A stretch of 64,000 nucleotides of DNA from Eubacteriales bacterium (GTDB taxonomy: Bacteria > Bacillota > Clostridia > Oscillospirales > CAG-272). The stretch is taken from contig JAZNXE010000008.1 of the NCBI GenBank assembly GCA_045593725.1, forward strand, positions 855 to 64,854, written 5' to 3'. Shown here piece by piece: positions 5,960 through 51,892 of this stretch; positions within the stretch are counted from its first letter, which is position 1; each line of letters begins with the position of its first letter. The position numbers and the translations under genes were made by a program. The notes below the pieces were generated by a model that did not search any database, was not told where the DNA came from, and worked only from the letters and a program-made list of their open reading frames with translations.

Positions 5960-6696
5960 TCTTCGGTCTTATCTCCGTCTGTATCAAGCACAGCAAAAGC
6001 CTTAAAGGCTTCTATCTCTTTGTCGTAATCCTCTTCCTTTTGCAAATAACGCTTAACGTGTAAGCACAGCACCGTGTCGGCGGGAAGCACCTGAAGCGCG
6101 GGATTTGTATTATATATCTCGGTATCTCCAAGTTTTATTCCAAATCTGCTTACTGCTCCCTCGGGAGTATAACCCAATATTTCGCTTAAGTCGCAAAGTC
6201 TTTTAGAGTCGGCGTTACCGCCAAGCATGCTAAAGAGATATGGGTCTAAAAGCAGTATGGAGCTTTTATCGGTAGCAAGTAATGAGTCAAAGGTCTCCTG
6301 CTGTTCAACGATAAAGGCGCGGTCTATGTAAACCTTTGAGCCATCGGGATTTACTCCCTTCTCAGCCTCTTTTATCTGTTCCTCGGACATAATAAGATAG
6401 CTCAGGGCATTTGCGACCGCGCCATCTCCGAAGCTATCCCTAGGAAGCTCTTTAGATAATACTGTCCTTATATTAGCTGTTTTCTCCCCATCCAAATATA
6501 CAGGTCCTGCATAGGTAACCGTAATATCGCTCTTTTCCTTTGTACAGCTTTGCGCGATGCAGATAACTGCCACTATCAAAAGAAATGCCGCTACTATGGT
6601 ATGCCATTTATAGTGATACCAAAAATTATCGAGCCAGGTTAAAAACCTGCCCTTTTCAATTACTATACCTTCGGTATATTGCTTTTCTTCTCTCAT
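5956..6696 (-). CDS. Hypothetical membrane-anchored protein (single N-terminal TM, extracytoplasmic domain)
   Basis: 246 aa with TM HTIVAAFLLIVAVICIAQSC. A 4-bp ATGA overlap with the EamA gene suggests translational coupling. I recognise no family. Confidence 0.6.
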   Translation of the reverse strand: MREEKQYTEGIVIEKGRFLTWLDNFWYHYKWHTIVAAFLLIVAVICIAQSCTKEKSDITVTYAGPVYLDGEKTANIRTVLSKELPRDSFGDGAVANALSYLIMSEEQIKEAEKGVNPDGSKVYIDRAFIVEQQETFDSLLATDKSSILLLDPYLFSMLGGNADSKRLCDLSEILGYTPEGAVSRFGIKLGDTEIYNTNPALQVLPADTVLCLHVKRYLQKEEDYDKEIEAFKAFAVLDTDGDKTEE

Positions 6697-10843: not shown

Positions 10844-11518
10844 TCAATAATTGCTTTTTGTCTTGTCGCCCTTAAGCAGCGTAACCAATCGGCTTGTTCC
10901 CAGTCTTTGGGCACCAAGGGATAAAAACAGCTCCGCGTCCTCAAAGCTTTTTATGCCCCCTGCCGCCTTTATTTTTACATTATTTCCTACGTTCTCGGCA
11001 AACAGCTTAATGTCGGCAGCGGTAGCTCCGCCCGTAGAAAATCCCGTGGAGGTCTTTATGTAGTCCGCCCCCGCCTCGGTAACTATTTTACACATAGCTA
11101 TCTTTTCATCCTCGGTCAGAAGGCAGGCTTCTATAATTACCTTAAGTATTTTTTCTCCGCATACCGCCTTTAAAGCCCTTATTTCTTCTGTGACAGTATC
11201 ATACTTTTTCGCTTTAAGGTCGCCTATATTGATAACCATATCTAACTCATCCGCGCCGTTATCAATAGCGTCCTTTGCTTCAGCGCATTTTATAGCTGTG
11301 GTGTTATATCCGTTGGGAAATCCTATAACAGTACATACGGCAACTCTTCCCTTCAAATATTGAGCTGCTTGGCTTACAAAGGACGGCGGGATACAAACAG
11401 ATGCCGTACCATATTTTTCGGCATCATCGCACACCGTCTTTATATCCTCCCACGTAGCACCCTGCAAAAGCAGGGTGTGATCTACGTGAGCCATTATTTC
11501 CTTTACCGTGTATTTCAT
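10844..11518 (-). CDS. deoC: Deoxyribose-phosphate aldolase
   Basis: MKYTVKEIMAHVDHTLL.., VCIPP, KVIIE, and Schiff-base region ADYIKTSTGF. ATG at 11518 forms an ATGA overlap with the upstream gene stop. Confidence 0.9.
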   Translation of the reverse strand: MKYTVKEIMAHVDHTLLLQGATWEDIKTVCDDAEKYGTASVCIPPSFVSQAAQYLKGRVAVCTVIGFPNGYNTTAIKCAEAKDAIDNGADELDMVINIGDLKAKKYDTVTEEIRALKAVCGEKILKVIIEACLLTEDEKIAMCKIVTEAGADYIKTSTGFSTGGATAADIKLFAENVGNNVKIKAAGGIKSFEDAELFLSLGAQRLGTSRLVTLLKGDKTKSNY

Positions 11519-13185
11519 TGCTCTGCCTCGGTACTCTTGAAGCTCCACTCGGATATTTGTCTTATCTTTTCAACGTCGGTTTCATAATAGGACACAGTCA
11601 GCACGTTGTCCTCCTCTATTAGGAGAACGCTCTCGTCTGCCGCGACGCTCTGCTTATAGAGATATCCGTCGGAGCCTGTAATATATACCGCCGATTCGCC
11701 GCCCATCGTTACTATACGCACGTTCTTAACGGTTATATCTGCGCTGGGCACAGTATCGTCTTCACTTGAGCTTCCGCCGGTAATTATACCATTCTGCTTT
11801 AAGAGCTTGATATATTCCTGCTTTGCCTCGGTCTGAGTAGTGCCTGTGGCTACAACGCTGTATTTTTCTACGTTTACCAGCGCGTAAAGCTTAACCAGTC
11901 CTCCGCTGTCCTTGAGCACCATAATATAGGTAGCCTGACCCGACACGTTGATAAGCGACGGGAAGGACGCTACGTATCCCTTTTCCTGCACCTCGCCCTC
12001 GGCTGCCCTCATAGCAGAGTACTCCTCAGCGCCGATTACGGGATAGAATTTATATTCACCCGTTCTGGCGTTACTGATAATAAATCCGATATTACTCTCG
12101 TCGCTAGTAACAGAGGTAACACCCGTAAAGAACCATACGTCGTCCCCGATAACTATATATCCGAAGTCGTCTGTGGTTACCTTACAATCCTTGTTGCCTA
12201 TTATGCTGTTCCAAAAGCCGTTTTTAAGCGTTCCGTACCAGTCGTATTTCTGCGCGGCAAGATTGCCCGTGAATACGTTATCTACCCACGAGGGCACGTC
12301 CTTCAGAGCGTAAATCTCGGAGCTTCCGTCAACGGGATTAAATATTATAACCTCATCAACGTCCATCGCGCCAAACAAAAATACGGTGGGCTTCATACAA
12401 GATACTATATAGTAAGGATTGCCGTTGTCGTCCACCTCAAAGGAATAAGAGCCGAATATCTTTGTGGGATAGGACATACGGAGCTTTCGGTGAAGGTCTT
12501 CGCCGAAAAACGCGCTGTCCGCATACTTTATTGGCTTTTGGAGCTTGATATAATTCGCCTCGGTGACGTTAACGGGGTCCACCATAACGTAACCCGGAAT
12601 ACCGCTCTTGCGGTTGCTCAGCCATTTGAAGAAATCGGCATATTCAAGGTTAGACACCTTTTGCGGGGTTCTCTTGTAATTTATCTGTCGGTAAGTGGGA
12701 TTTATTTCATACTGGGAAACAACGTCCGAAAGCGCGCCGAGGGTTCTGTCGCCCATTTTCTGCGCGGTTTGACTGTCCATAAGAGCTATGTTGCTTACTA
12801 TCGCGGTTTCGGGCATATCCTCCTCAAACACCGCCTCGGGAACCTCTATTATATTTGAGTATCTCTCGGCGTTAAAGAACGTGGATGACGCGATATTTCC
12901 TATTATTAGCACCAATACGGGTACTGCTATAAGCGAGAGTGATACCTTTAATACAGTCTTACCCTCGAAATTAAAGAATTTCTTGCTGACTCCCTTGGGC
13001 GCGAAGCCTTGCCTTGCCGAAAGCAAGGAATATATAACCGTAAAACAAGCTATAGCAAGAGCAAGGGATACCCAAAAGCCTTGGTTAAAAATATTGATTG
13101 CGGGGAGAGTTATATAAAAATATATTCCTCCCAGAGCAAGTGTGACAAGCAACGCCACTAAAACACGAACCCATGTTTTTTTCAT
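11515..13185 (-). CDS. Hypothetical large membrane protein (about 3 N-terminal TM segments plus a roughly 450-aa extracytoplasmic domain)
   Basis: 556 aa. I recognise no family. Tightly packed between topB and deoC. Confidence 0.6.
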   Translation of the reverse strand: MKKTWVRVLVALLVTLALGGIYFYITLPAINIFNQGFWVSLALAIACFTVIYSLLSARQGFAPKGVSKKFFNFEGKTVLKVSLSLIAVPVLVLIIGNIASSTFFNAERYSNIIEVPEAVFEEDMPETAIVSNIALMDSQTAQKMGDRTLGALSDVVSQYEINPTYRQINYKRTPQKVSNLEYADFFKWLSNRKSGIPGYVMVDPVNVTEANYIKLQKPIKYADSAFFGEDLHRKLRMSYPTKIFGSYSFEVDDNGNPYYIVSCMKPTVFLFGAMDVDEVIIFNPVDGSSEIYALKDVPSWVDNVFTGNLAAQKYDWYGTLKNGFWNSIIGNKDCKVTTDDFGYIVIGDDVWFFTGVTSVTSDESNIGFIISNARTGEYKFYPVIGAEEYSAMRAAEGEVQEKGYVASFPSLINVSGQATYIMVLKDSGGLVKLYALVNVEKYSVVATGTTQTEAKQEYIKLLKQNGIITGGSSSEDDTVPSADITVKNVRIVTMGGESAVYITGSDGYLYKQSVAADESVLLIEEDNVLTVSYYETDVEKIRQISEWSFKSTEAEQ

Positions 13186-16544: not shown

Positions 16545-17264
16545 ATGAAAAAAGTAAAAGAATATTTAAAAAACATCCCAAAAGAAAAGCTTATAATTAT
16601 TATTTGCTCGTTTATTGCTATATGCGCCATAGCGCTATCCGTAATAATTTTTACATCCGCAAAGCCCAATGAAAAAGCCGAAAAAGATGACCCAAACGGT
16701 ATAGCTACCGAGAATTACGGCGGCAGTCAGATATCCTCCCAAAAGCCCGACACCCTTGAGTATCAAAGTCTTGGGAACGGAACCTGCGTAGTGGTGGGAA
16801 TCGGCACATTTACAAAGGAAGAGCTTGAAATACCCGAGAAGAGTTATCTGGGCGATACGGTTATAGGAATTGCCTCGGCTGCCTTTGAAGGCTGTGAGGA
16901 TTTGGTATCAATACATATTCCCGCAAGCGTAACAAATATCGGTGAGGGTGTTTTTGTAGGCTGCTCTTCCCTTGCTCAGATAAGCGTAGAGCGGTCGAAC
17001 ACAAAATTTTCCTCCATGGGCGGAATACTTTATTCTAAAAACAAATCCGTGCTTATTTGCTATCCTGCGGCGCGCATAGGCAGCAGTTATCTGCTGAATC
17101 CCAATGTAAAGACCATAGCAAACGATGCTTTTTACGGCGTACAGCATCTGTCAAAGATAAATTACGAGGGCACTGCCTCGGAATTTGGAGAAATAACGGT
17201 AGGCGAAGGAAACCGCGCCTTTACGGCTCTTCCTGTTACCTGCAATTATATGTCTTCAAAATGA
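16545..17264 (+). CDS. BspA-type leucine-rich-repeat (LRR_5-like) protein, N-terminally membrane-anchored
   Basis: 239 aa with an N-terminal TM. Repeats of the type IPxSVTxIGxxAFxxCxxL. RBS AAAGGAGCAGG. Confidence 0.8.
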   Translation: MKKVKEYLKNIPKEKLIIIICSFIAICAIALSVIIFTSAKPNEKAEKDDPNGIATENYGGSQISSQKPDTLEYQSLGNGTCVVVGIGTFTKEELEIPEKSYLGDTVIGIASAAFEGCEDLVSIHIPASVTNIGEGVFVGCSSLAQISVERSNTKFSSMGGILYSKNKSVLICYPAARIGSSYLLNPNVKTIANDAFYGVQHLSKINYEGTASEFGEITVGEGNRAFTALPVTCNYMSSK

Positions 17265-18313: not shown

Positions 18314-20251
18314 TTAATTATCATCAACCTTAGCAATATCGCCGTCTGTGCAGTGTACAGTGTAGTCACCGGTGTCAGCGCTCCAGCCTTCGACCTTTTC
18401 AATAGACTTCCATTCTGCTTTTGTGCCTTCGAAGGTTATACTCGTAAGTCCTGTGCACTTGTGGAACGTCCCGATACTCTTAAGACTGTTGGGTATGCTT
18501 ATGTCGGTAAGTCCTGTACAATTGTAGAAAGCCCCATCTCCAATGCTCGTGACACCGTCAGGTACGGTTATACCCGTAAGCCCCGTGCACCAGTCAAACG
18601 CATCATCTGCAATGGTTTTAGTGCCCTCCTTTACCGTATATGCACCCGATATAGAAGTCTTTGCGTCTATTAGATGATTTCCTATATACAACACGCCATT
18701 ATCCCAATTGGATTGATTGTTATAGTATGCCGTATTGTATACCGCAGAACCGCCAATGCTCGTAACGCTGTCGGGTATGGTTATGCTCGTAAGTCCTGTG
18801 CAATAGTAGAACGCACTATCTCCAATGCTCGTGACGCTGTCGGGTATAGTTATACTCGTAAGCTTTGTGCAACCGTTAAAGGCATAATCTCCAATGTCCG
18901 TAACACTGTTGGGTATGCTTATATCCACAAGTGCTGTGCAATCACCAAACGCCGAATCTGCAATGTCCGTGATGCTGTCGGGTATGCTTATACCCGTAAG
19001 TCCTGTGCATTTTTTAAATGCACTATCTCCAATGCTCGTGACGCTGTCGGGTATGCTTATACCCGTAAGTCCTGTGCAATTGTAGAAGGCTAATAGAGCA
19101 ATAGTTTTAGTTCCATCCTTTACCGTATATGCACCCGATATAGAAGTCTTTGCCTCTATCAAATGCTTTCCTACATACAGCACTCTATTGTTCCAATTTG
19201 ACTCATTGTTATAGTATGCTGTATCGGAGAATGCCGCTTTTCCAATGCTCGTAACGCTGTCGGGTATAGTTATACCCGTAAGCTTTGTGCAACTCTTGAA
19301 CGTCTCTTCTCCAATACTCGTGAGCTTACTGTTTTCAGTAAATTCTATACCCGTTAGTCCAGTACACTCACGGAAGGCATAATCTCCTATGCCCGTAACA
19401 TTTTCGGGTATCGTTATACTCGTAAGACCCTTGCAGCAGGAGAAAGCATAATTTCCAATGCTCGTGAGCTTACTGTTCTTAGCAATCCTTACACTCGTTA
19501 ATCCTTTGCACCAGTAAAACGCACTATCTCCAATGCTTGTGACGCTTTTTGGTATGATTATACCTGTGATTTCCGTGAGGTTGCGGAAGGCTCCCCCAGC
19601 AATAGCTTTAGTTCCCTCTTTTACCGTATATGAACCCGATATAGAAGTTTTGGCATCTACCAAATGATTTCCTACATACAGCACACCCTTATCCCAGCTT
19701 GATTCACTGTTATAGTATGATGTATTGTAGAACGCACTATATCCAATACTCGTAATACTGTCGGGTATGGTTATACTCGCAAGTGCCGTGCAATTATAGA
19801 ACGCACAATCGCCAATGCTCGTGACACTGTCGGATATCGTTATACCCGTAAGGCTTGTGTTTTCGTAGAACGCACTATATCCAATCGCCGTAACAGGCAA
19901 ACTGTTATATTTGCCTATAACAATATCGGTTGCACTACAAGCTCCGATTCCCGTTACCGTATATCCTTTGCCGTCATCGTTCAATTCAAGCGCTAACCCC
20001 TCTGAGCATTCGGGAAGGCTTTCTATTGTCCACGAAGGAGCTTCAGGTTCTTCGTTTTCTTCTTCGTTCACCTCTCCATCGTTTTCCTCGTTTTCCTCAT
20101 CTTTGGGTTTGCTTTCCGAACTGCTGCTCTGGCTGTTGCTTGGGCTGGGGTCGGTAGTAGCACTCGTTTGCTCTATCTCAAAATAGTTACACGAAGTAAG
20201 CACGATTAAAAGCATAACTGCCACCAGAATGTTCGCTAAAATTCTTTTCAT
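18314..20251 (-). CDS. Large BspA-type LRR surface lipoprotein
   Basis: Lipobox LTSC after MKRILANILVAVMLLIVL. More than 15 copies of a 23-aa LRR (ITIPDSVTSIGDSAFYNCTGLTS). The start is moved to ATG 20251 (GGAGG 6 nt upstream). The track start at 20272 lies upstream of that RBS. Confidence 0.85.
   Translation of the reverse strand: MKRILANILVAVMLLIVLTSCNYFEIEQTSATTDPSPSNSQSSSSESKPKDEENEENDGEVNEEENEEPEAPSWTIESLPECSEGLALELNDDGKGYTVTGIGACSATDIVIGKYNSLPVTAIGYSAFYENTSLTGITISDSVTSIGDCAFYNCTALASITIPDSITSIGYSAFYNTSYYNSESSWDKGVLYVGNHLVDAKTSISGSYTVKEGTKAIAGGAFRNLTEITGIIIPKSVTSIGDSAFYWCKGLTSVRIAKNSKLTSIGNYAFSCCKGLTSITIPENVTGIGDYAFRECTGLTGIEFTENSKLTSIGEETFKSCTKLTGITIPDSVTSIGKAAFSDTAYYNNESNWNNRVLYVGKHLIEAKTSISGAYTVKDGTKTIALLAFYNCTGLTGISIPDSVTSIGDSAFKKCTGLTGISIPDSITDIADSAFGDCTALVDISIPNSVTDIGDYAFNGCTKLTSITIPDSVTSIGDSAFYYCTGLTSITIPDSVTSIGGSAVYNTAYYNNQSNWDNGVLYIGNHLIDAKTSISGAYTVKEGTKTIADDAFDWCTGLTGITVPDGVTSIGDGAFYNCTGLTDISIPNSLKSIGTFHKCTGLTSITFEGTKAEWKSIEKVEGWSADTGDYTVHCTDGDIAKVDDN
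18628..19153 (-). repeat. Long in-frame DNA repeats inside the LRR gene
   Basis: 37-nt perfect repeat at 18628-18664 and 19117-19153 (489 bp apart). 35-nt perfect repeat at 18813-18847 and 19020-19054. 34-nt perfect repeat at 18976-19009 and 19045-19078 (69 bp, one LRR unit). Confidence 0.9.
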
Positions 20252-20429
20252 TATATTCCTCCGAATATTCATTGACCTGCTGCTTTCATTTTATCACACA
20301 TCCTATTTATTGTCAAGTTTTTTGAAATTCTTAATAAAAATTCCTCAAAGCTATTGAAAAAAAGCTCATTTAGAGTTATACTATATAAGATTGAAAAATA
20401 TTTTACTTTTTAATTTTTGGAGGTCAATT

Positions 20430-22136: not shown

Positions 22137-22172
22137 ATATAATTTCATACCTTTATTTTTTGAGAGGTGGGT

Positions 22173-23738
22173 ATGGACAGACTAAAAAAATTCTACGTCA
22201 ACGGGATATTGATGACGGTAGTTACGCTTATAATAAGATACGTTTCGGTCAATTTCAACATCTATATATCCAACAAGATAGGCGCTGTATCCATGGGAAT
22301 ATTTACCCTTGTATCAAGCGTATATGGCTTCGCCCTTACTATCGCCACCTCGGGTATAAGCCTTGCCACCACCAAGCTCGTATCCGAGGCTATGGGAATA
22401 GGCTCACAAAGAAAGGATTACAACACAAAAAAAACCGTGCTTTCGGTGATGAAAAGAAGTCTTCTTTTTTCCCTATCCATAAGCTTTGCCACAGCCTTTT
22501 CTTTGTTCCTATCTGCTCCCTTTATAGGTAAGACCATACTTGGCGATGAACGCACGGTATCCTCATTACGCATACTTGCTTTTTCTCTCCCCGCTATTGC
22601 TTTATCCTCATCCTTAGGCGGATATTTCACAGCTCTTCGCAGGGTATATAAAAACGCCTGTGTTCAGATATTTTCTCAAGCCTTGCGGATATATTTGTGT
22701 GTAGTACTGCTAAGCTCTACGGTCGCTAAGGATATGGAAAGCGCCTGTGTTGCCATTGTGGTAGGAATAACAGTATCGGAGATAGGGGGATTTATTATCC
22801 ACCTTGTTATGTATCTTTTTGAAAAAAGGAGTAAGGAAAAGCCACAGAAATCCCTACCCGCGGACAAAAAGCTGGCGGGGCGGCTGATACCTATCACAGT
22901 TCCTGTGGCGCTCAGTGCTTATATGCGTTCCGCTCTCATAACGGTAGAGCATCTTCTTATCCCCTGGGGACTTGAGCGCAGCGGTACGTCACGGGATATT
23001 TCCCTTGCCGCATACGGCACTGTTCACAGCCTTGTATTTCCACTTATTCTATTTCCTTCGGCTATTTCCTCATCCTTCGCGGGGCTGTTAGTGCCCGAAA
23101 TATCCGAGTCGGACGCCGCCGAAGACAAGGAGCGTATTGAACGCATAATATCACGTGTTTTAAAAACCGTACTTATATATTCCGTGGGCGTAGCGGGAAT
23201 AATGATGTGTCTTTCGGGTGAGCTTGGCTCTGTTCTTTTAGAAAGCCAAGACTCGGCACTCTATATAGGTCTTATCGCCCCCTTAATACCTATAATGTAT
23301 CTTGATACCTCCGTGGATTCTATCCTCAAAGGCTTAGGATATCAATTTTATTCAATGATTATAAATATAGCGGATGCTTTTATGTCGGTTGTATTGGTGT
23401 GGATCTTACTGCCCCGCTTCGGTATAATGGGATATATTATGACCGTCTATTTCACTGAAATAGTAAACGCCACCCTGAGCATTACAAAGCTACTTATTGT
23501 GACTAAGACTAAGGTCAGGATATTCGATTGGATAGTTAAGCCTATCCTATGCATTATAGCCGCCACGGGAATTTTGAATTTCTTTATCGAGCACCTGTCT
23601 GTTTTCGCCACCACACGGGCAGCTTTGTTTATCCACATTTTTTTAATAGGTATAATATATTTAGCGCTTTTGGTTGTGGCGCGGGCTATCTCCCCCCAAA
23701 AAATAAAGACCTCCATAGTAAATTTCTTAAGGATATAA
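22173..23738 (+). CDS. MOP-superfamily oligosaccharide/polysaccharide flippase (SpoVB/MurJ-like)
   Basis: About 521 aa and about 14 TM. The N-terminus FYVNGILMTVVTLIIRYVSVNFNIYISNKIGAVSMGIF resembles SpoVB-type flippases. ATG 22173 has GAGAGG upstream. Confidence 0.75.
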   Translation: MDRLKKFYVNGILMTVVTLIIRYVSVNFNIYISNKIGAVSMGIFTLVSSVYGFALTIATSGISLATTKLVSEAMGIGSQRKDYNTKKTVLSVMKRSLLFSLSISFATAFSLFLSAPFIGKTILGDERTVSSLRILAFSLPAIALSSSLGGYFTALRRVYKNACVQIFSQALRIYLCVVLLSSTVAKDMESACVAIVVGITVSEIGGFIIHLVMYLFEKRSKEKPQKSLPADKKLAGRLIPITVPVALSAYMRSALITVEHLLIPWGLERSGTSRDISLAAYGTVHSLVFPLILFPSAISSSFAGLLVPEISESDAAEDKERIERIISRVLKTVLIYSVGVAGIMMCLSGELGSVLLESQDSALYIGLIAPLIPIMYLDTSVDSILKGLGYQFYSMIINIADAFMSVVLVWILLPRFGIMGYIMTVYFTEIVNATLSITKLLIVTKTKVRIFDWIVKPILCIIAATGILNFFIEHLSVFATTRAALFIHIFLIGIIYLALLVVARAISPQKIKTSIVNFLRI

Positions 23739-24037: not shown

Positions 24038-24253
24038 TTTTTTCTACCTCCCGGAAGGTAAGCAAAGAGCTTTTGAAATGTAAATGTCAAAAGTACCTTT
24101 GCGTTGCTTTTGGCAAAATCTTGTTGTCTTTAATTAAGTCAGTGCTTGTCAGGAAAATTGACAAGTCATAGATAAACATAAAAAGGCTCCTTATGTAAAG
24201 GGAAGCTCTTTTTACTTTCCGGAAGGTAATTGGATAAAATATCACTAAATATG

Positions 24254-24282: not shown

Positions 24283-24466
24283 AAGCATGCCAAACAATCT
24301 TAATATCCATAGTTATAGGTTTTTTCTCGTTATGGGATAACTATAGCTTTTTTCGCTATACAATTAGGCAAACTCGTTTTGGTAAAAACGCTGCTCCTGC
24401 TTGATTGTATAGAAAACCTATGCTATGAAGAGATTGTTTGGCGACAATTGGAGTTAGCGTTTTTCG

Positions 24467-24500
24467 GTGCGGTAACTTCGGTTGCCGCACTTTTTATTTT
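24467..24500 (+). terminator. Strong intrinsic terminator inside the 5' leader, about 14 nt upstream of the lipoprotein RBS (candidate attenuator)
   Basis: GTGCGGTAAC-TTCG-GTTGCCGCAC followed by TTTTTATTTTATT. Confidence 0.75.
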
Positions 24501-24525
24501 ATTCTTATTTTTCGGAGGAAAAACC

Positions 24526-25848
24526 ATGAAAAAACTTTTAGCACTCATTTTAGCGGCACTTATGCTTTTTTCAATTACTGCCTGTACCACCACAAAAAAC
24601 AATTTAGGTAGTAACGGCGACAATACCCAAAATACTGTAAATAATCACGAAGGAGGAGATTCCAACATTCCCTCGAACAGCAACCCGTCCAATAGCGATG
24701 ATGCGGTTAAAATTGGAAAAATTGTTACCGGCTATCACGAAGGATTGATGTTTATAGAAAATACCACCAATATGGGAATGCATACCATTTCCTGTATAGA
24801 CAAGACGGGAAAAACTGTATTTTCCATCGAAGCTTCTTACATTATCAGCGGTTTTCATAATGGATTGGCATTCGTGATGCGAGATAAAGCTGTTTTGTGT
24901 GATAAAACGGGAAAAATTATTACCGCACAAGACCTTGGGGGTACGTCCTTTGACGCAGATAATCCTAAAATATTTGAAGATGGATATATTCTTGTAAATA
25001 AAACAACCACATCTTTCCAAGGTTCTGTTAACGAAATGGCTGTATTTAATAGTGACCTCGAGAAAATCGTTGATTTTTCGAGTGATCTATATAATTGGTA
25101 CAACAATGATTACCAATACAACGGAACTACATATTACAACGGATATTTGTTTGATAGAGATATTACAGGCGGTGTTTTGGATTTGAGAACAGGAGAAAGA
25201 TCACAAAACCTTGCGGTATGGGTTGAAAATATGGAGTTGAAAAATGAGACTGATTTTTGGTTAGCGGGAGAAAGATGGAATGGCACTTTTTCTACGCCAA
25301 ACGGCGAGATATATTTTATCTACGATAGAAGGGACTACCTTTCTTCAAGTGAATATCACCCTGTGATAACACCCGTCATCGACCTGAGCGAAGCAGGAGG
25401 ACGTATTCGTTCAAATAATCAAATAGGAACTGGCTTTGTTGATGGCTATGCCGCTTTGGTTTTTGAGGTAATGGATTCCGAGGTTGGTGAACGCCATTAT
25501 TTCACCATTTTAGATAAAGACGGAAATTATTGTTTTGAGCCTGTTGAGGTAGCCGGTACCATTGACGAAGTAAAAACCGAAAACGGTATTTTTGTGCTCT
25601 CAGTCGTTCCCCATAGCCGTAACGAATCCTCATATTATATTGAGGTTTACGACGTTTCAGGCAAAATCGGAGTCAAGGAATATCAAAAACCGGATACAAG
25701 CTTTTGGAGTATTGATTTTGATATCAGCGACAGCATAATTTTCATTCAATATGATGACTATAACACCTTGGGTAAAAAATGGATTGGCATTTATAAAACA
25801 GATATGCAACCGCTTTTCGACGTGGAAATTGTTACCGATTCACAATAA
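24526..25848 (+). CDS. Lipoprotein with WG/KWG-like beta-propeller-type repeats
   Basis: MKKLLALILAALMLFSITAC lipobox with GGAGGA 6 nt upstream (the track start TTG 24379 runs through the terminator and is rejected). Repeats have the form (Y/F)H(E/N)GL.F. ... DKTGK. Confidence 0.7.
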   Translation: MKKLLALILAALMLFSITACTTTKNNLGSNGDNTQNTVNNHEGGDSNIPSNSNPSNSDDAVKIGKIVTGYHEGLMFIENTTNMGMHTISCIDKTGKTVFSIEASYIISGFHNGLAFVMRDKAVLCDKTGKIITAQDLGGTSFDADNPKIFEDGYILVNKTTTSFQGSVNEMAVFNSDLEKIVDFSSDLYNWYNNDYQYNGTTYYNGYLFDRDITGGVLDLRTGERSQNLAVWVENMELKNETDFWLAGERWNGTFSTPNGEIYFIYDRRDYLSSSEYHPVITPVIDLSEAGGRIRSNNQIGTGFVDGYAALVFEVMDSEVGERHYFTILDKDGNYCFEPVEVAGTIDEVKTENGIFVLSVVPHSRNESSYYIEVYDVSGKIGVKEYQKPDTSFWSIDFDISDSIIFIQYDDYNTLGKKWIGIYKTDMQPLFDVEIVTDSQ

Positions 25849-29979: not shown

Positions 29980-30022
29980 CAAAAAACACCGCTTTACTAC
30001 CAAATCCTGATAGCAAAGCGGT
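29980..30022 (-). terminator. Rho-independent terminator of the Cys-rich gene
   Basis: Stem ACCGCTTT..CTA/TAG..AAAGCGGT, followed on the minus strand by GTTTTTTGT. Confidence 0.7.
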
Positions 30023-30083: not shown

Positions 30084-30920
30084 TTAGCAGCCGCACTTAC
30101 CGCCGTGGTCACCCTTTAGAAGGGGTACATATCCCGGAGGGCAAAATTCTGCCGTGGGGAAAGCCATATTTTTGAAAATAGCGCAAGGGTCATCCTCCTC
30201 GGGAGAGATGCACACCTTGTCGGGAACACAATATTCGGTTGCGTTTATAAGATACTGTCCCGGTCTTACTATCCTTACTACCGAGAAGATACCCAATGAA
30301 ACGGTGACATACCGACCATCGGAATCGCTGAGGTCACCGTGAATGTGGCGTCCTACGCCGTCGGGAATATCATTGCAGCAGCAACAGCAGCAACAGCAGC
30401 AATCATCCGCTTCCCTTACCTTGCTGTTGAGAATAACGGGATCTACGACCTCTACAATTGCTGTGGGCACGTTCTTGGTCGCGCAGCAGGGCTCGGGTAT
30501 TGCGCAATAGTCAGAGGCTTCCGCACTGCTCTTAAATATGCTCACGTTGCTCTCTCCGCCATAGAGTATGACTCTCTTTTCAAGCACGGCTATACCTTCA
30601 AATTCCTGACTCTTGCCACCGCACAAGCAGGCTTCAAAGGTTATCTTAATGTAAAACTTAATTGTTACCGAGTAAAATCCGCGGTTGAATTTTATGGGGT
30701 CTATACCGATATAGGTCCATGTGATACAAGCGTTCTTGGCACGTACGTTGGTGGTATGCTGAATTATATCGTTTCCGAAATCGGTCAGAAGCACCTTTAC
30801 GTCCTCGAAACAGTCCTTATCGCGACAGGAATCCAATATACGATTCACTTCTACACAGACCGTTTCATTTTTCGAGGTATTCTTGTCAGAAATACCGCAA
30901 GGAAATCTGCTATCTTGCAT
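30084..30920 (-). CDS. Cysteine-rich protein of unknown function with an uninterrupted Cys9 run
   Basis: 278 aa, about 25 Cys, no signal peptide or TM. ...READDCCCCCCCCCNDIP..., C-terminal GGKCGC, N-terminal CVEVNRILDSCRDKDC. RBS AAGGAGG. Monocistronic. Confidence 0.8.
   Translation of the reverse strand: MQDSRFPCGISDKNTSKNETVCVEVNRILDSCRDKDCFEDVKVLLTDFGNDIIQHTTNVRAKNACITWTYIGIDPIKFNRGFYSVTIKFYIKITFEACLCGGKSQEFEGIAVLEKRVILYGGESNVSIFKSSAEASDYCAIPEPCCATKNVPTAIVEVVDPVILNSKVREADDCCCCCCCCCNDIPDGVGRHIHGDLSDSDGRYVTVSLGIFSVVRIVRPGQYLINATEYCVPDKVCISPEEDDPCAIFKNMAFPTAEFCPPGYVPLLKGDHGGKCGC
30375..30401 (-). repeat. (TGY)9 trinucleotide tract encoding Cys9
   Basis: The plus strand reads GCAGCAGCAACAGCAGCAACAGCAGCA, in frame with the CDS. 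Confidence 0.95.
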
Positions 30921-31027
30921 AATCGTTCCTCCTTAAGAATTTGAGCGTGGCTCTTCCTTAACATAATATGCACAAGGTGCTAATTTGACAATCCGAGAAA
31001 AAACTTTTATAAAAACGAAAAAAGTAC

Positions 31028-31055
31028 TTGACAATTTCAAAAAATATAGTATAAT
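31028..31055 (+). promoter_or_regulatory. Near-consensus sigma-A promoter driving the tRNA-Leu transcription unit
   Basis: TTGACA (31028-31033), 16-nt spacer, TATAAT (31050-31055). Confidence 0.65.
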
Positions 31056-31254: not shown

Positions 31255-31338
31255 GCGAGAGTGGCGGAACTGGCAGACGCGCACGTTTGAGGGGCGTGTG
31301 GTTACACCGTACGGGTTCAAGTCCCGTTTCTCGCACCA
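31255..31338 (+). tRNA. tRNA-Leu (anticodon GAG), class II with long variable arm, CCA encoded
   Basis: GCGAGAG acceptor stem, anticodon stem CACGT/GCGTG with loop TTGAGGG, variable arm TGGTTACACCGTAC, T-arm ACGGG-TTCAAGT-CCCGT, and 3' TTCTCGC-A-CCA. Confidence 0.9.
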
Positions 31339-31506: not shown

Positions 31507-32340
31507 ATGAACCAATTCACAGAATATCCGCTCAAAAAAGAAAAAGCGCCAAAGCTGTTTCTTATCATAATGCTTTTCTTTTGCTTTCTTCCTGTAATAC
31601 TTAACTGTGTTTTGATATCTCCGTTATATATGAAGCTTAACGCCGACGTTCTGTTTTCGGATTCGGCTATAATACATATACTTGACTACTCTATGGACTT
31701 TTTGGATATAGTAGCCTTCTCCGTATCCTACGCCCTCATAATCTTCTCCGTGCTTCTTCTTTCAAAAAAGACGGCTCGCTTCATAGTTTTGCTATATACC
31801 TTGGCTTTTGCCATGCAGATACCTATAAAGATATTTATGAACATCCCCCTTAACGGTTCTCTTGGCTCTGTTGAGGAAATAATTATAGATATAATTTATC
31901 TTTCAATATATTTTGTCCTGTTTATGCTCCAGCTTTTGGCTGTATATCTTTTCGCCGCTACCGATACCAATAAATATCTGCGTTATATGGAATTTAGCAA
32001 AAAGAAGGCGAACAAAAAGAATGTATCCTCCCCCGAGGAATGTTCTGTTATGCCTTTTAATCGTTTTTTCCGTAAAAGCAACCCCTTGCAACGCTCGGCT
32101 CTTAAAATGAGTCTTTTGATATTCTTTATAAGGCTTATGTCACGTTTAATCAATGATATATCCTACGGCGCTCCCCAGTCAATCGGTGAGGTACTTATAA
32201 TGGCGGTTTATTATTTGTCGGATGCGCTCTATGGGATTGTGGCGTACATTGTAGCGTTGCTTGTCTTCTCCTTCGTGTACGAAAGACTTGCCAACAAAAA
32301 AGCGGACGAAGCCGCCGCTCCGCCCGCTGAACATATCTAA
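31507..32340 (+). CDS. Hypothetical polytopic membrane protein
   Basis: 277 aa, about 6 TM, with a Lys-rich loop (SKKKANKKN). RBS GGGGG. I recognise no family. Confidence 0.6.
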   Translation: MNQFTEYPLKKEKAPKLFLIIMLFFCFLPVILNCVLISPLYMKLNADVLFSDSAIIHILDYSMDFLDIVAFSVSYALIIFSVLLLSKKTARFIVLLYTLAFAMQIPIKIFMNIPLNGSLGSVEEIIIDIIYLSIYFVLFMLQLLAVYLFAATDTNKYLRYMEFSKKKANKKNVSSPEECSVMPFNRFFRKSNPLQRSALKMSLLIFFIRLMSRLINDISYGAPQSIGEVLIMAVYYLSDALYGIVAYIVALLVFSFVYERLANKKADEAAAPPAEHI

Positions 32341-34093: not shown

Positions 34094-34122
34094 TTGACAT
34101 TTTTCGATTTCTGTTGTATACT
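34094..34122 (+). promoter_or_regulatory. Sigma-A promoter of nrdD
   Basis: TTGACA (34094-34099), 17-nt spacer, TATACT (34117-34122). Confidence 0.6.
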
Positions 34123-34174
34123 TGTATATGCAGGAATTTTTAATAAAAATATAAATATAAACAGGAGGACAAAA

Positions 34175-36562
34175 ATGTATCAGGTCTTAAAAAGAGACGG
34201 CAAGGTCGTTGATTTCGACCTCGCTAAGATTGGCGACGCCATAAAGATGGCGTTTGAAGCACAGGAAAAACAGTATCATCCCTCTATAATCGACTTTCTC
34301 GCGCTGAGAGTTACCGCGGATTTCGAGCCTAAAATAAAGGAAGGTCTTATCGCCGTTGAGGACGTTCAGGACAGCGTTGAGTCTGTTCTCGTTCAGGCAG
34401 GCTACGCAGACGTAGCAAAGGCTTACATCCTTTACCGTAAGCAGAGAGAAAAGCTCCGTAATATGAAATCTACTATCCTTGACTATAAGGATATCGTTGA
34501 CAGCTACGTAAAAAACACCGACTGGCGTGTTAAGGAGAACTCTACCGTTACCTACTCGGTAGGCGGTCTTATACTCAGCAACTCGGGCGCCATTACGGCT
34601 AACTACTGGCTCTCCGAGGTTTACGACGACGAGATAGCTAACGCTCACCGCAACGCCGACATTCACATTCACGACCTCTCTATGCTCACAGGCTACTGTG
34701 CGGGTTGGTCATTAAAGCAGCTTATTCAGGAGGGTCTTGGCGGCGTTACAGGTAAAATAACATCCGCTCCCGCAAGCCACCTGGCAACTCTCTGCAACCA
34801 GATGGTCAACTTCCTTGGAATTATGCAGAATGAGTGGGCAGGCGCGCAGGCGTTCTCCTCCTTTGATACATATCTCGCGCCCTTTGTAAAGGTTGACAAT
34901 CTTTCCTATGATCAGGTAAAGAAGTGCATCGAATCCTTTATTTTTGGTGTAAACACTCCCTCTCGTTGGGGTACTCAGGCTCCCTTCTCCAACATCACTC
35001 TTGACTGGACCGTTCCCGCTGACCTTGCGGAGCTTAACGCTATCGTTGGCGGCAAGGAAATGGACTTCAAGTACAAGGATTGTAAGAAGGAAATGGATAT
35101 GGTCAACAAGGCGTTCATCGAAACTATGATTGAGGGTGACGCCAACGGAAGAGGCTTCCAGTATCCTATTCCCACCTACTCTATCACCAGCGACTTTGAC
35201 TGGTCCGACACCGAAAACAACCGTCTTCTCTTCGAGATGACTTCTAAATACGGTACTCCTTACTTCTCTAACTATATCAACAGCGATATGGAGCCCAGCG
35301 ACGTAAGAAGTATGTGCTGCCGTCTGCGTCTTGACCTCCGTGAGCTTCGTAAGAAGTCGGGCGGATTCTTCGGAAGCGGTGAGAGCACCGGTTCTATCGG
35401 TGTTGTAACCATCAATATGCCCAGAATTGCTTACCTCGCTGAAAACGAGGAGGACTTCTACGCGCGTCTTGACCACAAGCTTGACGTTGCGGCTCGCTCG
35501 CTCAAGATAAAGCGTACGGTTATTACAAAGCTTCTTGACGAGGGACTTTACCCCTACACCAAGAGATATCTCGGAACTTTCGAGAACCACTTCTCTACTA
35601 TCGGTCTTGTTGGTATGAATGAGGCTTGTCTTAATGCTAAGTGGGTCGGAAAGAACCTTGGTAGCGACGAGGCTCAGAAGTTCACTAAGGAGGTTCTCAA
35701 TCACATGAGAGAGCGTCTCTCCGACTATCAGGAGAAGTACGGCGACCTCTATAACCTTGAGGCTACTCCCGCTGAGTCCACCTCTTACCGTCTTGCAAAG
35801 CATGATGTCAAGCGTTTCCCCGATATCATTACCGCTACCGAAAAGGGCAAGACTCCCTACTACACCAACTCCTCTCACCTTCCCGTTGGATACACCGACG
35901 ATATATTTGAGGCACTTGACCTTCAGGACGAGCTCCACACTCTTTACACGTCTGGAACTGTATTCCACGCTTATATGGGTGAGAAGCTTCCCGACTGGAA
36001 GGCTGCGGCAAATCTCGTAAGAAAGATTGCAGAGAACTATAAGCTCCCCTACTACTCCATGTCACCTACATACTCTGTATGTAAGGCGCACGGATATATC
36101 GTAGGTGAAAAGTTCACCTGCCCCTTCTGTGGTGAAAAAACCGAGGTTTACAGCCGTATTACAGGTTATTACCGTCCCGTTCAGAACTGGAACGACGGTA
36201 AGGCTGAGGAATATAAGAACCGTAAGCTCTACAATATTTCCAATTCTGTCGCAAAGCGTAATTTTGACGTTGCAAAGGAATCCGAGGCTGCTGACGCTTG
36301 TACAAGCTGTGTAGATACCTACGCCGTAAGCAATATCACTCTCTTTGCTACCACCACCTGTCCCAACTGCAAGATGGCTGAGAAGTTCCTTAATGATGCG
36401 GGCGTTCCCTTCGTAAAGGTATATGCGGATCAGGACCCCGATGCGGCTAAGAAGTACGCTATAACGGCAGCTCCTACCCTTGTTATTGAGGGCGAGAACG
36501 GATTTGAAAAGGTTATGAACGTTTCCAATATCCGTAAGTTTGCTGAAAACTTCAAGAAATAA
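34175..36562 (+). CDS. nrdD: Anaerobic (class III) ribonucleoside-triphosphate reductase with a C-terminal fused thioredoxin/glutaredoxin-like domain
   Basis: MYQVLKRDGKVVDFD (ATP-cone) with AGGAGG upstream. Zn-ribbon C..C..CPFC, glycyl-radical motif SRITGYYRPV, then a roughly 85-aa Trx fold with CPNC and a cis-Pro-like APT. The track start at 34094 is rejected. Confidence 0.9.
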   Translation: MYQVLKRDGKVVDFDLAKIGDAIKMAFEAQEKQYHPSIIDFLALRVTADFEPKIKEGLIAVEDVQDSVESVLVQAGYADVAKAYILYRKQREKLRNMKSTILDYKDIVDSYVKNTDWRVKENSTVTYSVGGLILSNSGAITANYWLSEVYDDEIANAHRNADIHIHDLSMLTGYCAGWSLKQLIQEGLGGVTGKITSAPASHLATLCNQMVNFLGIMQNEWAGAQAFSSFDTYLAPFVKVDNLSYDQVKKCIESFIFGVNTPSRWGTQAPFSNITLDWTVPADLAELNAIVGGKEMDFKYKDCKKEMDMVNKAFIETMIEGDANGRGFQYPIPTYSITSDFDWSDTENNRLLFEMTSKYGTPYFSNYINSDMEPSDVRSMCCRLRLDLRELRKKSGGFFGSGESTGSIGVVTINMPRIAYLAENEEDFYARLDHKLDVAARSLKIKRTVITKLLDEGLYPYTKRYLGTFENHFSTIGLVGMNEACLNAKWVGKNLGSDEAQKFTKEVLNHMRERLSDYQEKYGDLYNLEATPAESTSYRLAKHDVKRFPDIITATEKGKTPYYTNSSHLPVGYTDDIFEALDLQDELHTLYTSGTVFHAYMGEKLPDWKAAANLVRKIAENYKLPYYSMSPTYSVCKAHGYIVGEKFTCPFCGEKTEVYSRITGYYRPVQNWNDGKAEEYKNRKLYNISNSVAKRNFDVAKESEAADACTSCVDTYAVSNITLFATTTCPNCKMAEKFLNDAGVPFVKVYADQDPDAAKKYAITAAPTLVIEGENGFEKVMNVSNIRKFAENFKK

Positions 36563-36589: not shown

Positions 36590-36645
36590 GGTGAGCATTT
36601 GGAACGGCGACATTCTCCAAGTACAAATGCTCACCCACATTTTTG
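36590..36645 (+). terminator. Long-loop hairpin plus T-tract between nrdD and trxB (candidate partial terminator)
   Basis: 12-bp stem GGTGAGCATTTG/CAAATGCTCACC with a 22-nt loop, then CACATTTTTG. Confidence 0.5.
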
Positions 36646-36666
36646 TTAAATAAGAAAGGCTATACT

Positions 36667-37587
36667 ATGCACGACATTATTGTAATCGGAGCAGGTCCCG
36701 CGGGAATGACCGCGGCGCTCTATGCGCTTCGCGCTGATAAAAGCGTTCTTCTTTTGGAGAAAGAAAACTTCGGAGGTCAGATCACCTATTCCCCCCGTCT
36801 TGAAAACTATCCTTCAATAATCGAAATAAGCGGAAGCCAATTTGCCGAAAAGCTGCTTGAGCAGGTAATGACCCACGGCGCGGACATTGAATTGGCTCAG
36901 GCAACAGAAATAAAGGATATGGGCACTCACAAGGTAGTATCCACCGAATACGGCGATTTTGAAGGCAAGGCTGTAATTATCGCTACCGGCTCTAAGCACC
37001 GCCACCTCGGTCTTGAGGGAGAGGAGGAGCTTATCGGTTCGGGTATATCCTTTTGCGCAGTATGTGACGGTTCATTTTTCGCGGATAAGAGCGTTGCTGT
37101 TATAGGCGGCGGAAATACCGCTTTACAGGAAGCTGTAATGCTGTCCGACATCTGCAAAAAAGTAACTATGATACAGAATTTATCCTTTATGACCGGTGAA
37201 AAGAAACTTTTAGCTATACTTGAGGGCAAGGAAAACGTTGAAATGATTTTTGATACCGTTGTTACCGACCTTAAGAGCAAGGACGGCGAGCTTTGCGGAA
37301 TTACCGTCAAGAATACAAAAACCGAGGAAGTCTCCTCTCTGGATTTTGACGGAATGTTCGTAGCTATCGGACAGGCTCCCGAAAATGAGGATTTCAGAAG
37401 CGTTACCGCTCTTGACGACTACGGTTACATTGTATCAGATGAAAATTGTCTTACCGATACAGAGGGCGTTTTCGTTGCGGGTGACTGCAGAACAAAGAGA
37501 ATCCGGCAGGTAACCACCGCTGCCGCTGACGGCGCTGTTGCCGCTCTTGCCGCTTGTAGGTACATCGACGGTCTTTGTGCAAAATAA
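36667..37587 (+). CDS. trxB: Thioredoxin-disulfide reductase
   Basis: MHDIIVIGAGPAGMTAA (FAD GxGxxG), redox-active CAVCDG, and NADPH motif GGGNTA. Confidence 0.9.
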   Translation: MHDIIVIGAGPAGMTAALYALRADKSVLLLEKENFGGQITYSPRLENYPSIIEISGSQFAEKLLEQVMTHGADIELAQATEIKDMGTHKVVSTEYGDFEGKAVIIATGSKHRHLGLEGEEELIGSGISFCAVCDGSFFADKSVAVIGGGNTALQEAVMLSDICKKVTMIQNLSFMTGEKKLLAILEGKENVEMIFDTVVTDLKSKDGELCGITVKNTKTEEVSSLDFDGMFVAIGQAPENEDFRSVTALDDYGYIVSDENCLTDTEGVFVAGDCRTKRIRQVTTAAADGAVAALAACRYIDGLCAK

Positions 37588-50349: not shown

Positions 50350-50862
50350 TTATCTTACTCTTCTGTAATTCACCGCGCTTACGCTTCCGCTCTTTACGGT
50401 AAACTCAAGCTCCAGGTCACTCTTTTTATAAAGCAGCTTTCCGTTCTCCTCGGACACGGGCTTTCCGTAGGCGTCACGCACCTCCTGCTCCTGTGAGCCT
50501 ATGGATATTCCCTTAGGCGTTGAAACCAAATCGCTCCCGAAGGATATCTTGTGGATGACCTCTCCGCCCTCCTCCTTAAGGGTATTGACGGTAATATCCC
50601 CATAGGTATATTTCATCTGAACGCCTATTCCTCCGCAATCTCCGAGGTTATCCTCGTATTTGGGTGTCCCAAGCTTATCGAGAACCCCGTCAGCCTTTTT
50701 ATCCAGCTCTATCTTCACGCCCTTATATACCACGTAAAAGGGGCTTTCGTTTGTATTTTGCTCATTTCCTTGCTCATCATTACAGGAAGAAAGCGTCATC
50801 AATACAGCCATACAGCAAGCAACGGCAAGAATAACGGCGGTAATACTTTTAATCTTTTTCAT
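50350..50862 (-). CDS. Hypothetical lipoprotein (last gene of the Dlt-like operon)
   Basis: MKKIKSITAVILAVACCMAVLMTLSSC lipobox. ATG 50862 overlaps the upstream gene by 14 nt. About 170 aa. Confidence 0.65.
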   Translation of the reverse strand: MKKIKSITAVILAVACCMAVLMTLSSCNDEQGNEQNTNESPFYVVYKGVKIELDKKADGVLDKLGTPKYEDNLGDCGGIGVQMKYTYGDITVNTLKEEGGEVIHKISFGSDLVSTPKGISIGSQEQEVRDAYGKPVSEENGKLLYKKSDLELEFTVKSGSVSAVNYRRVR

Positions 50863-51892
50863 TTGCTGTTCCTTCCATTTCCTTCTTTTTATTTTGATAC
50901 TCATTCAGATAACCGTCCCAGAGCCTTGCTACGTCCTCCTCATCCTTGTGAGAGTCAAGCCCGTGCTCATTTGCAAGTATCTGTCCAAAATATTTGCTGA
51001 ACTTTTCCGCTCCGTACACGTTGAGGTGAAGTCCTGCGTCGTAGGTATCGGTCTGCCAATCAATGCCCATTTCCGCAGCCTTTGGAATAAAATTGTAATA
51101 CGCCAAGCTGTTTTTCTCTGCATACTCGGATATCTGACTATCCCATTCATCGTACCACCAATATCCTCGCGGGTTGGTAGGCGCTTTTACAAGTATCAGC
51201 TCACTTCCGTTGCTTTCGCAAAGAAGTCTTATTTTTTCAAGATAATCCATAGCGCGCTGGGGCAAAAGCTCCTCGGGAGCGTCGGTTACAGGGTCACTCT
51301 GCTTCATTGGTACCGTTCCCGTCTTAATGAGATACCCGTTATCGGTCATTGCCTCAGGAGTCTTGAACCAATATTTCACGTCCTCTTCCTTCAGCTCGGT
51401 AATCCTTGAATGGTATCTTAGCAAAGGAAAGAGGTAATCCAAAAAGCTCTCATCCTCTGTCATTGAAGCCATAATTCCCTCTGCCTTAACGCTCGACCAC
51501 TTCATAGTGTCAAAGGTCATTCTATTGTACGCCTCGCTTTGCGGCTCGCCGTACTTAAGGGCATATACGTTAAAAACGACAGCCTTGGGCTTCTCGTATT
51601 TAAAGGTTTCCTTAAGCAGGTAGTAGGAATGCCAAGCGAGCTGTTGCGCACTTCCTCTTATATATGAGGTAATACCGTACTCTTGCCACAATACCGAGGG
51701 AACAAAGCTTTCGTACACCTCGCAGTCACCTATGAATATAACGTCATGTCCGCCCTTGCGGCTGTAATACTCACCTGTCAGAAGTCCTTCCGCGTTGGTT
51801 ACGTACTTGGGACGCACCAACGCTTGTAAAGCGCCGAGGATAAATACGATCGCAAGAAGTGCGGCTACGCCTATCAATATTTTTTTCTTCAT
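50849..51892 (-). CDS. Membrane-anchored SGNH/DltD-like protein (putative O-acyl/aminoacyl transferase-esterase partner of the MBOAT)
   Basis: 347 aa with an N-terminal TM. Block-I-like VIFIGDCEVYESF, and C-terminal DAGLHLNVYGAEKF resembling the SGNH block V. Sits where dltD would be. Confidence 0.6.
   Translation of the reverse strand: MKKKILIGVAALLAIVFILGALQALVRPKYVTNAEGLLTGEYYSRKGGHDVIFIGDCEVYESFVPSVLWQEYGITSYIRGSAQQLAWHSYYLLKETFKYEKPKAVVFNVYALKYGEPQSEAYNRMTFDTMKWSSVKAEGIMASMTEDESFLDYLFPLLRYHSRITELKEEDVKYWFKTPEAMTDNGYLIKTGTVPMKQSDPVTDAPEELLPQRAMDYLEKIRLLCESNGSELILVKAPTNPRGYWWYDEWDSQISEYAEKNSLAYYNFIPKAAEMGIDWQTDTYDAGLHLNVYGAEKFSKYFGQILANEHGLDSHKDEEDVARLWDGYLNEYQNKKKEMEGTANEKD

Follow-up and report, generated by a model that had tools for sequence, protein, structure and literature searches.

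Several unrelated cysteine-rich proteins, with 14–25 cysteines (Cys) each, self-assemble into disulfide-locked spore lattices (PMC7333573; bioRxiv 10.64898/2026.09.03.749163). Among the closest described examples are CsxA and CsxC of Clostridium sporogenes and the C. botulinum group I, which are found in the exosporium basal layer and in a parasporal crystal and have 24–25 and 14 Cys per subunit, respectively. For these two proteins, as for CdeC and CotY/ExsY, it has been demonstrated or proposed that crystalline self-assembly raises the local concentration of Cys, and that the resulting arrays dissociate only on boiling in strong reductant (PMC7333573; bioRxiv 10.64898/2026.09.03.749163). The function of CsxA and CsxC is proposed to rest on the cooperative disulfide cross-linking of a self-assembled lattice. 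CdeC and CdeM of C. difficile and CsA and CsB of Paeniclostridium sordellii are Cys-rich morphogenetic proteins of the exosporium, required for building the layer (PMC6101409, PMC7677010), and CdeC expressed in E. coli is reported to assemble by itself (PMC7677010). In Bacillus, the Cys-rich CotY, CotZ and ExsY form disulfide-locked hexagonal arrays in the crust or exosporium (PMC4950064, PMC7333573). Here, we analysed a gene encoding a Cys-rich protein of 278 amino acids (aa) in the stretch of 64,000 nucleotides (nt) presented above, which we call the window and to which all coordinates refer. By analogy with the systems just described, we think it probable that the product is a mother-cell-expressed, disulfide-cross-linked structural component of the spore coat or exosporium. 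The gene and its signals, all on the minus strand, are as follows.

30084..30920, minus strand: coding sequence of the Cys-rich protein, with an ATG start, 278 aa and 25 Cys, identified by its open reading frame (ORF) and translation, homologues, purifying selection and an AlphaFold2 (AF2) model.
30963..30991, minus strand: promoter block, with TTGTCA at 30991-30986, a 15-nt gap after GTCA, and the -10 box CATATTAT at 30970-30963.
30943..30953, minus strand: hairpin GAGC-CAC-GCUC of the 5' untranslated region, just past the predicted transcription start (-5.0 kcal/mol, z = -0.3).
30928..30934, minus strand: ribosome-binding site (RBS) AAGGAGG, 7 nt 5' of the ATG, read in the sequence.
30807..30857, minus strand: N-terminal hallmark motif C22-x9-C32-x4-C37 (VCVEVNRILDSCRDKDC), from an alignment of 84 members.
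30375..30401, minus strand: tract of nine Cys (Cys9), residues 174-182, encoded by (TGC TGC TGT)x2 + TGC TGC TGC, inside a hypervariable Cys-rich loop.
29981..30022, minus strand: intrinsic terminator, whose 12-bp core stem is part of a longer, A/U-extended hairpin and has a run of U after it.

The evidence that carries this reading lies upstream of the gene. In the DNA 5' of the gene at about 80 orthologous loci, we found a lone shared block amid otherwise unalignable intergenic sequence, tTGTCAAA - N12 - GCATAnnATnTTA, located ~50-65 nt before the ATG. Of the 78 close loci, 53 contain the motif GTCA-N15/16-CATAnn(n)T in this region, a density of 4.2 per kb; over the other 1.5 Mb of these loci, counted on both strands, the density is 0.012 per kb, ~350-fold lower. 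An initial annotation of the window had pointed to a sigma-K-like -10 with one mismatch in this region, and that element turns out to belong to the block conserved in most orthologous loci. When sites were anchored without requiring 'CA', this dinucleotide was found ahead of TAnnnT in 52 of 57 family promoters (91%) and in 3.8% of 755 background sigma-A-like sites. Hence, 'CATA', and not merely 'TA', is selected. The distant Oscillibacter-type loci (L083-L087) carry the canonical sigma-K form AC-N16/17-CATA(C/G)A(C/A)T in five cases out of five, and the promoter pattern of the sigma-K regulon, AC-N16/17-CATAnnnT, is matched exactly in all five. The form of the window's clade is TC-N16-CATAnnAT, with the C of the diagnostic 'AC' in place and a T replacing the A. 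The -10 of sigma-E and that of sigma-K are both of the CATA type in C. difficile and B. subtilis, and it is the -35 that tells the two factors apart (ATA versus AC) (PMC3789822). The two -10 boxes of the C. difficile sigK promoters are CATATTAT (P1) and CATATAAT (PMC3789822), and the -10 of the window is identical to the former. Judged by these motifs, the family promoter is of the mother-cell sporulation type and looks more sigma-K-like than sigma-E-like. We regard its dependence on one of these two factors as quite probable, and sigma-K as the likely one of the two.

The second line of evidence comes from the relatives. In the cultured Oscillibacter sp. GMB15532 (locus L084, 10001-15617; JBEVTO010000002.1), the homologue immediately precedes a complete spoIIIA operon, spoIIIAA-AB-AC-AD-AE-AF-(AG)-AH, from which it is separated by its own terminator. 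At another distant locus (L087), a YunB gene is found ~6.5 kb from the homologue. These two cases show that carriers of the family possess sporulation genes. Together, the conserved sporulation-type promoter and the spoIIIA adjacency make a mother-cell Cys-rich spore-envelope protein the best-supported functional class. The idea of a coat or exosporium protein, raised by the initial annotation, is thus partly supported, as a functional class; a family link to the CotY/Z, ExsY or CdeC groups is not supported, as detailed below. In the window itself, a scan of the whole stretch for sporulation genes yielded none that was unambiguous. A CtpB-like S41 peptidase is encoded there, as is the following candidate.

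22167-23738, plus strand: SpoVB-like flippase, whose best NCBIfam match, TIGR02900, scores 247.7 bits, below the cut-off of 372.3, so that its identity as SpoVB is unproven.

Since the window lacks an unambiguous sporulation gene, we infer the capacity of this organism to sporulate from the promoter and from the relatives.

These same data bear on a different account of the gene, namely that it encodes a vegetative, sigma-A-transcribed cytoplasmic protein that serves an anaerobe in redox or metal homeostasis and takes no part in sporulation, the CATA being incidental or related to a regulator. The promoter block would suit it, as TTGTCA-17-TATTAT scores 10/12 as a sigma-70-type promoter, and its TTG, which sigma-K does not need, is conserved in the window's clade. 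So would the housekeeping neighbours found at nearly all loci and the scan of the window for sporulation genes. However, it leaves unexplained why 'CA' is so much more frequent in the family promoters than in the background. The fit to TTGACA is also uneven among the distant loci (by a hand count, ~5/6 in L083 and L087 and poorer in L084-L086), while AC-N16/17-CATA is kept in all of them, and the Oscillibacter homologue adjoins spoIIIA. Overall, we find a purely vegetative role improbable.

Two other promoter-like elements were noted in the window. A perfect sigma-70 consensus, TTGACA-16-TATAAT (12/12), lies at 31028-31055 on the plus strand, divergent from the promoter of the Cys-rich gene, and probably drives tRNA-Leu(GAG) (31255-31338, plus strand), ~200 nt downstream. 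A second GTCA-N-CATA site, at 24148-24173 on the plus strand, was judged to be probably due to chance: it is ~200 nt 5' of a lipoprotein ORF and a sigma-70-like TTTACA / TATAAT is nearer. This ORF (24379-25848, plus strand) encodes 489 aa with an internal lipoprotein-type signal (MKKLLALILAALMLFSITAC) and matches no Pfam or NCBIfam family.

The other expression signals are consistent with a gene transcribed alone. The RBS noted in the initial annotation is indeed found, at 30934..30928, and (A/G)GGAGG occurs at equal spacing in most orthologous loci. Folding also recovered the terminator that had been placed at 29980-30022: its stem spans 30022..29988, the U-tract extends to 29981, and the extended hairpin has an energy of -38.2 kcal/mol (z = -5.88), reached by 0 of 200 shuffles. 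The 5' hairpin of the window is weak and many orthologues have stronger ones, with z < -1.5 relative to shuffles in 34 of 60 loci. In loci L003-L082 these hairpins begin a few nt after the predicted start, within the first ~40 nt past the -10 box, and their stems differ among loci (e.g. GGAAGAAAG/CUUUCUUCC and GAGGGCGGG/CCUGUCCUC). They may stabilise the mRNA of a highly expressed late gene. Two ORFs lie antisense to the gene on the plus strand, one of 201 aa (30339-30944) and one of 55 aa (30343-30510) with a run of nine glutamines that mirrors the TGC/TGT repeat. Both are mirror artefacts of the real minus-strand gene.

We then characterised the family to which the protein belongs. There are 1622 matches to the window protein in a collection of 5.8 billion proteins, and the closest 120 of them are 70-88% identical to it over the full length and carry either no name or the label 'hypothetical protein'. 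Searched exhaustively with a profile, the representatives clustered at 50% identity yielded 979 clusters at E ≤1e-3, of which 163 reached E ≤1e-30, and a distant member (P0187) used as query matched 5726 proteins. When one genome per GTDB species was scanned, we found at least 561 matching stretches. The named carriers are Oscillibacter, Intestinimonas, Papillibacter, Candidatus Limivicinus, Anaerotruncus and Eubacterium sp. CAG:841; the others include many metagenome-assembled genomes labelled 'Oscillospiraceae', 'Eubacteriales' or 'Clostridia bacterium', from the guts of humans, ruminants and other animals. Among the matches listed, each one with an organism name is from an Oscillospiraceae-type or other gut or rumen Clostridium, and the window probably comes from an uncultured Clostridium, of the Oscillospiraceae type, that lives in the gut or rumen. 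Every named member of the family is labelled 'hypothetical'.

Against 13 orthologues, dN/dS (the ratio of nonsynonymous to synonymous substitution rates) is 0.056 where dS is unsaturated, with an approximate upper bound of 0.05-0.19 elsewhere. These values, together with the homologues, show that this is a real gene under strong purifying selection. One could argue that a low-complexity codon repeat such as (TGY)n reflects a repeat artefact or a chance ORF without function, and the repeat is the sole point in favour of this view. It is contradicted by the number of full-length homologues, by the low dN/dS, by the conservation of the RBS, promoter and terminator, and by the confident AF2 prediction. 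The conservation data already refute it, and we give it practically no credence. The gene is present in a single copy per locus and we found no tandem paralogues in any locus examined. Searches of PHROG with the window protein and two distant members gave no match, nor did tblastn against plasmids. At the orthologous locus of a related genome (L089) the order of genes is nrdD, nrdG, XRE regulator, family-less ORF, this gene, phosphoglucomutase, dxs and a SpoVB-like gene, with two extra genes between the family-less ORF and the Cys-rich gene. In view of this synteny, the gene is not a mobile insertion beside the tRNA.

The Cys content of the window protein is 9.0%, against a mean of 1.35% in nine housekeeping ORFs of the window. 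The Cys9 run (nt 30401..30375; codons TGC TGC TGT TGC TGC TGT TGC TGC TGC) is accompanied by a CC pair at residues 145-146, by CxC at 98/100 and 276/278, and by the C-terminus GGKCGC. At the protein's own composition, ~1e-7 runs of nine or more Cys are expected. When we read the sequence by eye, using no predictor, we saw no signal-peptide-like or long hydrophobic segment, and the N-terminus is hydrophilic. The initial annotation had listed these properties, from the length and ~25 Cys to the pairs and the GGKCGC end; the translation of the ORF bears them out, and the reading by eye agrees with the absence of a signal peptide and transmembrane segment that it had reported.

To distinguish the Cys that characterise the family from those that vary, we measured conservation over 84 diverse members. 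Eight positions stand out.

C22: conserved in 79% of the members.
C32: conserved in 95%.
C37: conserved in 96%.
C231: conserved in 68%.
C237: conserved in 86%.
C246: conserved in 93%.
C276: conserved in 67%.
C278: conserved in 86%.

The first three form the hallmark motif, whose D30 and S31 are at least 90% conserved and whose block has the consensus (E/K)xVC(I/V)xxx(R/K)(I/V)xDSCxD(K/R)DC. The initial annotation had loosely likened the N-terminal motif to CotY/Z-type proteins; C-x9-C-x4-C is instead the hallmark of the protein's own family. The poly-Cys tract sits in an inter-strand loop that ends at a conserved 'IP'. This loop varies in length and sequence, and contains 0-14 Cys in the 84 members (e.g. 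CNCCNCGCGCGCGNNCNCGCANNCNCGCGC in P0152). The survey of orthologues that had been suggested as a check found the tract kept in 120 of the 120 closest homologues, with a longest run of 3-9 Cys. Further away, the longest run is at most five in 102 full-length distant representatives and at most four in the Oscillibacter-type subfamily. From this distribution, long uninterrupted runs are specific to the window's own clade, and Cys9 is best described as the extreme state of a Cys-enriched variable loop, a lineage quirk and not a family-defining trait. The coding repeat has a period of 9 nt and varies in length in frame among close relatives, which is compatible with changes in run length by in-frame repeat slippage. 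Some family members have a total of only 5-6 Cys, implying that heavy cross-linking is not essential to the fold.

Searches for known families and folds were negative. The initial annotation recognised no family, and neither did we: the window protein matched nothing in Pfam and NCBIfam at E ≤10, the 84 diverse members matched no relevant Pfam family and no coat-protein family at E ≤1, and neither the protein alone nor the family profile retrieved anything significant from the PDB sequences. The matches to a retinol-binding protein (E ≥0.067) and to a designed SNARE (E 0.098) were taken as chance. An AF2 model built with 25 close homologues was unusable (mean predicted local distance difference test score, pLDDT, of 50). 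Repeated with the 84 diverse sequences, it is all-beta, with a pLDDT of 82 and a predicted template modelling score (pTM) of 0.77. The strands are very long (residues 22-46, 59-75, 82-98, 104-120, 153-169 and 204-224) and there is one short helix (47-55). For the C-terminal tail (225-278), whose sequence is conserved, the AF2 confidence is lower; we speculate that this tail could be a strand-exchange or interface element. The fold comparison suggested earlier was made with Foldseek against PDB and BFVD and returned no match at E ≤0.001; its top matches were rejected (template modelling score, TM, ≤0.19). The family is unannotated, and no characterised coat protein matches it in sequence or structure.

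How does it compare with the described systems? Its 25 Cys are close to the count of CsxA, and CsxA and CsxC are clostridial and predicted to be beta-rich, as here. This likeness is drawn from published descriptions. There are also differences: the genes of CsxA often adjoin those of collagen-like proteins (BclA) and glycosyltransferases (PMC7333573), none of which were seen near the family loci examined, and CsxA and CsxC come from cultured Clostridium species whereas the names in our family are Oscillospiraceae-type or unclassified gut Clostridia. CdeC and CdeM have no demonstrated sequence relationship to the window protein, and CdeC, with 405 aa, is larger. CotY, CotZ and ExsY are sigma-K dependent in B. 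subtilis and are shorter (~160 aa). Their resemblance to the window protein is a superficial N-terminal C-x(n)-hydrophobic-x-C likeness. Their family hidden Markov models are unmatched, at E ≤10 for the window protein and at E ≤1 for the 84 members, and the fold of the Bacillus proteins differs (bioRxiv 10.64898/2026.09.03.749163).

CsxA, CsxC and CdeC have been assigned the SPOCS/DUF3794 fold by Foldseek and AlphaFold 3, and not by sequence (bioRxiv 10.64898/2026.09.03.749163), and our family may likewise adopt it. The SPOCS/DUF3794 proteins (the N-domain of SpoVID, CotE, SipL) are spore-envelope proteins with long beta strands in two three-stranded sheets, which form a beta-barrel, and with a strand-swapped trimeric 'tripod'. 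The AF2 model obtained here is also long-stranded and all-beta. On the other hand, neither the window protein nor the 84 members match PF12673 or PF10628, the latter being that of CotE. We tried to make the link through CotE and rejected it: hhalign of the family profile gave a probability of 2.4% over 24 columns against the CotE profile and of 0.6% against the single CotE sequence. The identity of the B. subtilis CotE query was confirmed (267 bits to PF10628 and 99% identity to a database CotE).

Expression timing, localisation, self-assembly and disulfide chemistry are what we infer when proposing how a structural spore-envelope protein of this family might work. The gene would be transcribed alone, late in sporulation and in the mother cell, from its sigma-K-type promoter (a sigma-E-type one being possible). 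The strong RBS, the terminator and, in many relatives, the 5' hairpin would shape the expression of the mRNA. With no evident signal peptide, the product would stay in the cytoplasm of the mother cell, fold into its predicted elongated all-beta core, and be deposited onto the surface of the forespore. The eight conserved Cys and the exposed variable loop (Cys9 here) would then be joined by cooperative disulfides, within and between molecules, or perhaps by metal-thiolate links, so that the assembly becomes locked as a resistant layer. This would parallel the proposed workings of CsxA, CsxC, CdeC, CotY and ExsY.

It is important to highlight the observations that weigh against this proposal. 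The -35 of the window's clade reads TTGTCA and not AC, and the block fits, as mentioned, a sigma-A/sigma-70 promoter. Apart from the cases described, the genomic context is housekeeping and variable, and the scan of the window gave no unambiguous sporulation gene. The family includes the Cys-poor members, with 5-6 Cys. Finally, Pfam, Foldseek against PDB and BFVD, and hhalign against CotE revealed no sequence or fold link to a characterised coat protein.

The evidence from the promoter and spoIIIA applies equally to a sporulation-specific protein that is not structural. Such a protein could bind or store metals (Zn, Cu, Fe) through thiolates, act as a redox buffer or organise morphogenesis in the mother cell, and might be packaged in the spore. 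Clusters of the poly-Cys and CxC kinds are well-known sets of thiolate ligands, and here eight Cys are fixed in position and complemented by a Cys-rich loop. Yet the C-x9-C-x4-C spacing is not, to our knowledge, a known cluster motif, and no metal-binding, Fe-S or metallothionein family was matched in Pfam and NCBIfam by the window protein, or in Pfam by the 84 members. A loop with anything from 0 to 14 Cys is hard to square with a defined metal site, and the 278-aa predicted beta-rich fold is unlike the small metallothioneins. In favour of an organiser, the Cys-poor members resemble the morphogenetic, Cys-poor SPOCS proteins (bioRxiv 10.64898/2026.09.03.749163). We consider a non-structural role rather unlikely, if less so than a purely vegetative one, and retain the structural spore-envelope component as our preferred reading. 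The family most likely fills a known functional niche. A bolder version of the structural reading is that it is the founding family of the principal protein that self-assembles on the spore surface in Oscillospiraceae-type gut Clostridia, with a fold lacking any solved relative, and that its exposed poly-Cys loop of variable length is a tunable disulfide or metal-thiolate 'zipper' setting the cross-linking of the lattice. This we see as conceivable but doubtful.

For a large share of gut anaerobes, transmission and persistence are driven by spore formation, yet nearly all spore-envelope proteins known are those of Bacillus, C. difficile and the C. botulinum/sporogenes group. A strongly conserved and unannotated family, with a sigma-K-type promoter and present in the genomes of at least 561 species, can thus be put forward, as a testable hypothesis, as a major component of the coat or exosporium in Oscillospiraceae-type gut Clostridia. 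If this is correct, the gene would be a marker of sporulation capacity in metagenome-assembled genomes. The family would also be a further case of the convergent strategy of Cys-rich self-assembling lattices, and a natural system in which the number of cross-linking Cys varies through a simple change in repeat length.

The gene is monocistronic in all cases, and the genes around it are for the most part housekeeping ones that differ from one lineage to another. In the window, phosphoglucomutase and dxs are downstream, whereas tRNA-Leu(GAG), a membrane protein, an XRE regulator and nrdG/nrdD are upstream, in agreement with the position between housekeeping genes described by the initial annotation. 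The ORF at 31507-32340 (plus strand) looks, from its sequence, like a multi-pass membrane protein. It is one of six ORFs, of 184-556 aa, with no Pfam family at E ≤1e-6; the others, all on the minus strand, are at 5956-6696, 11515-13185, 50350-50904, 50849-51892 and 55251-56204, and those at 5956-6696 and 31507-32340 also lack an NCBIfam family. NrdD (34094-36562, plus strand) has a C-terminal glutaredoxin-like extension of the YruB family (residues 747-806), and a thioredoxin reductase (36643-37587) comes after it. Elsewhere in the window, two BspA-type leucine-rich-repeat proteins, likely surface proteins, are encoded at 16545-17264 (plus strand) and 18314-20272 (minus strand), where they flank the gene of a ParA/NUBPL-type ATPase.

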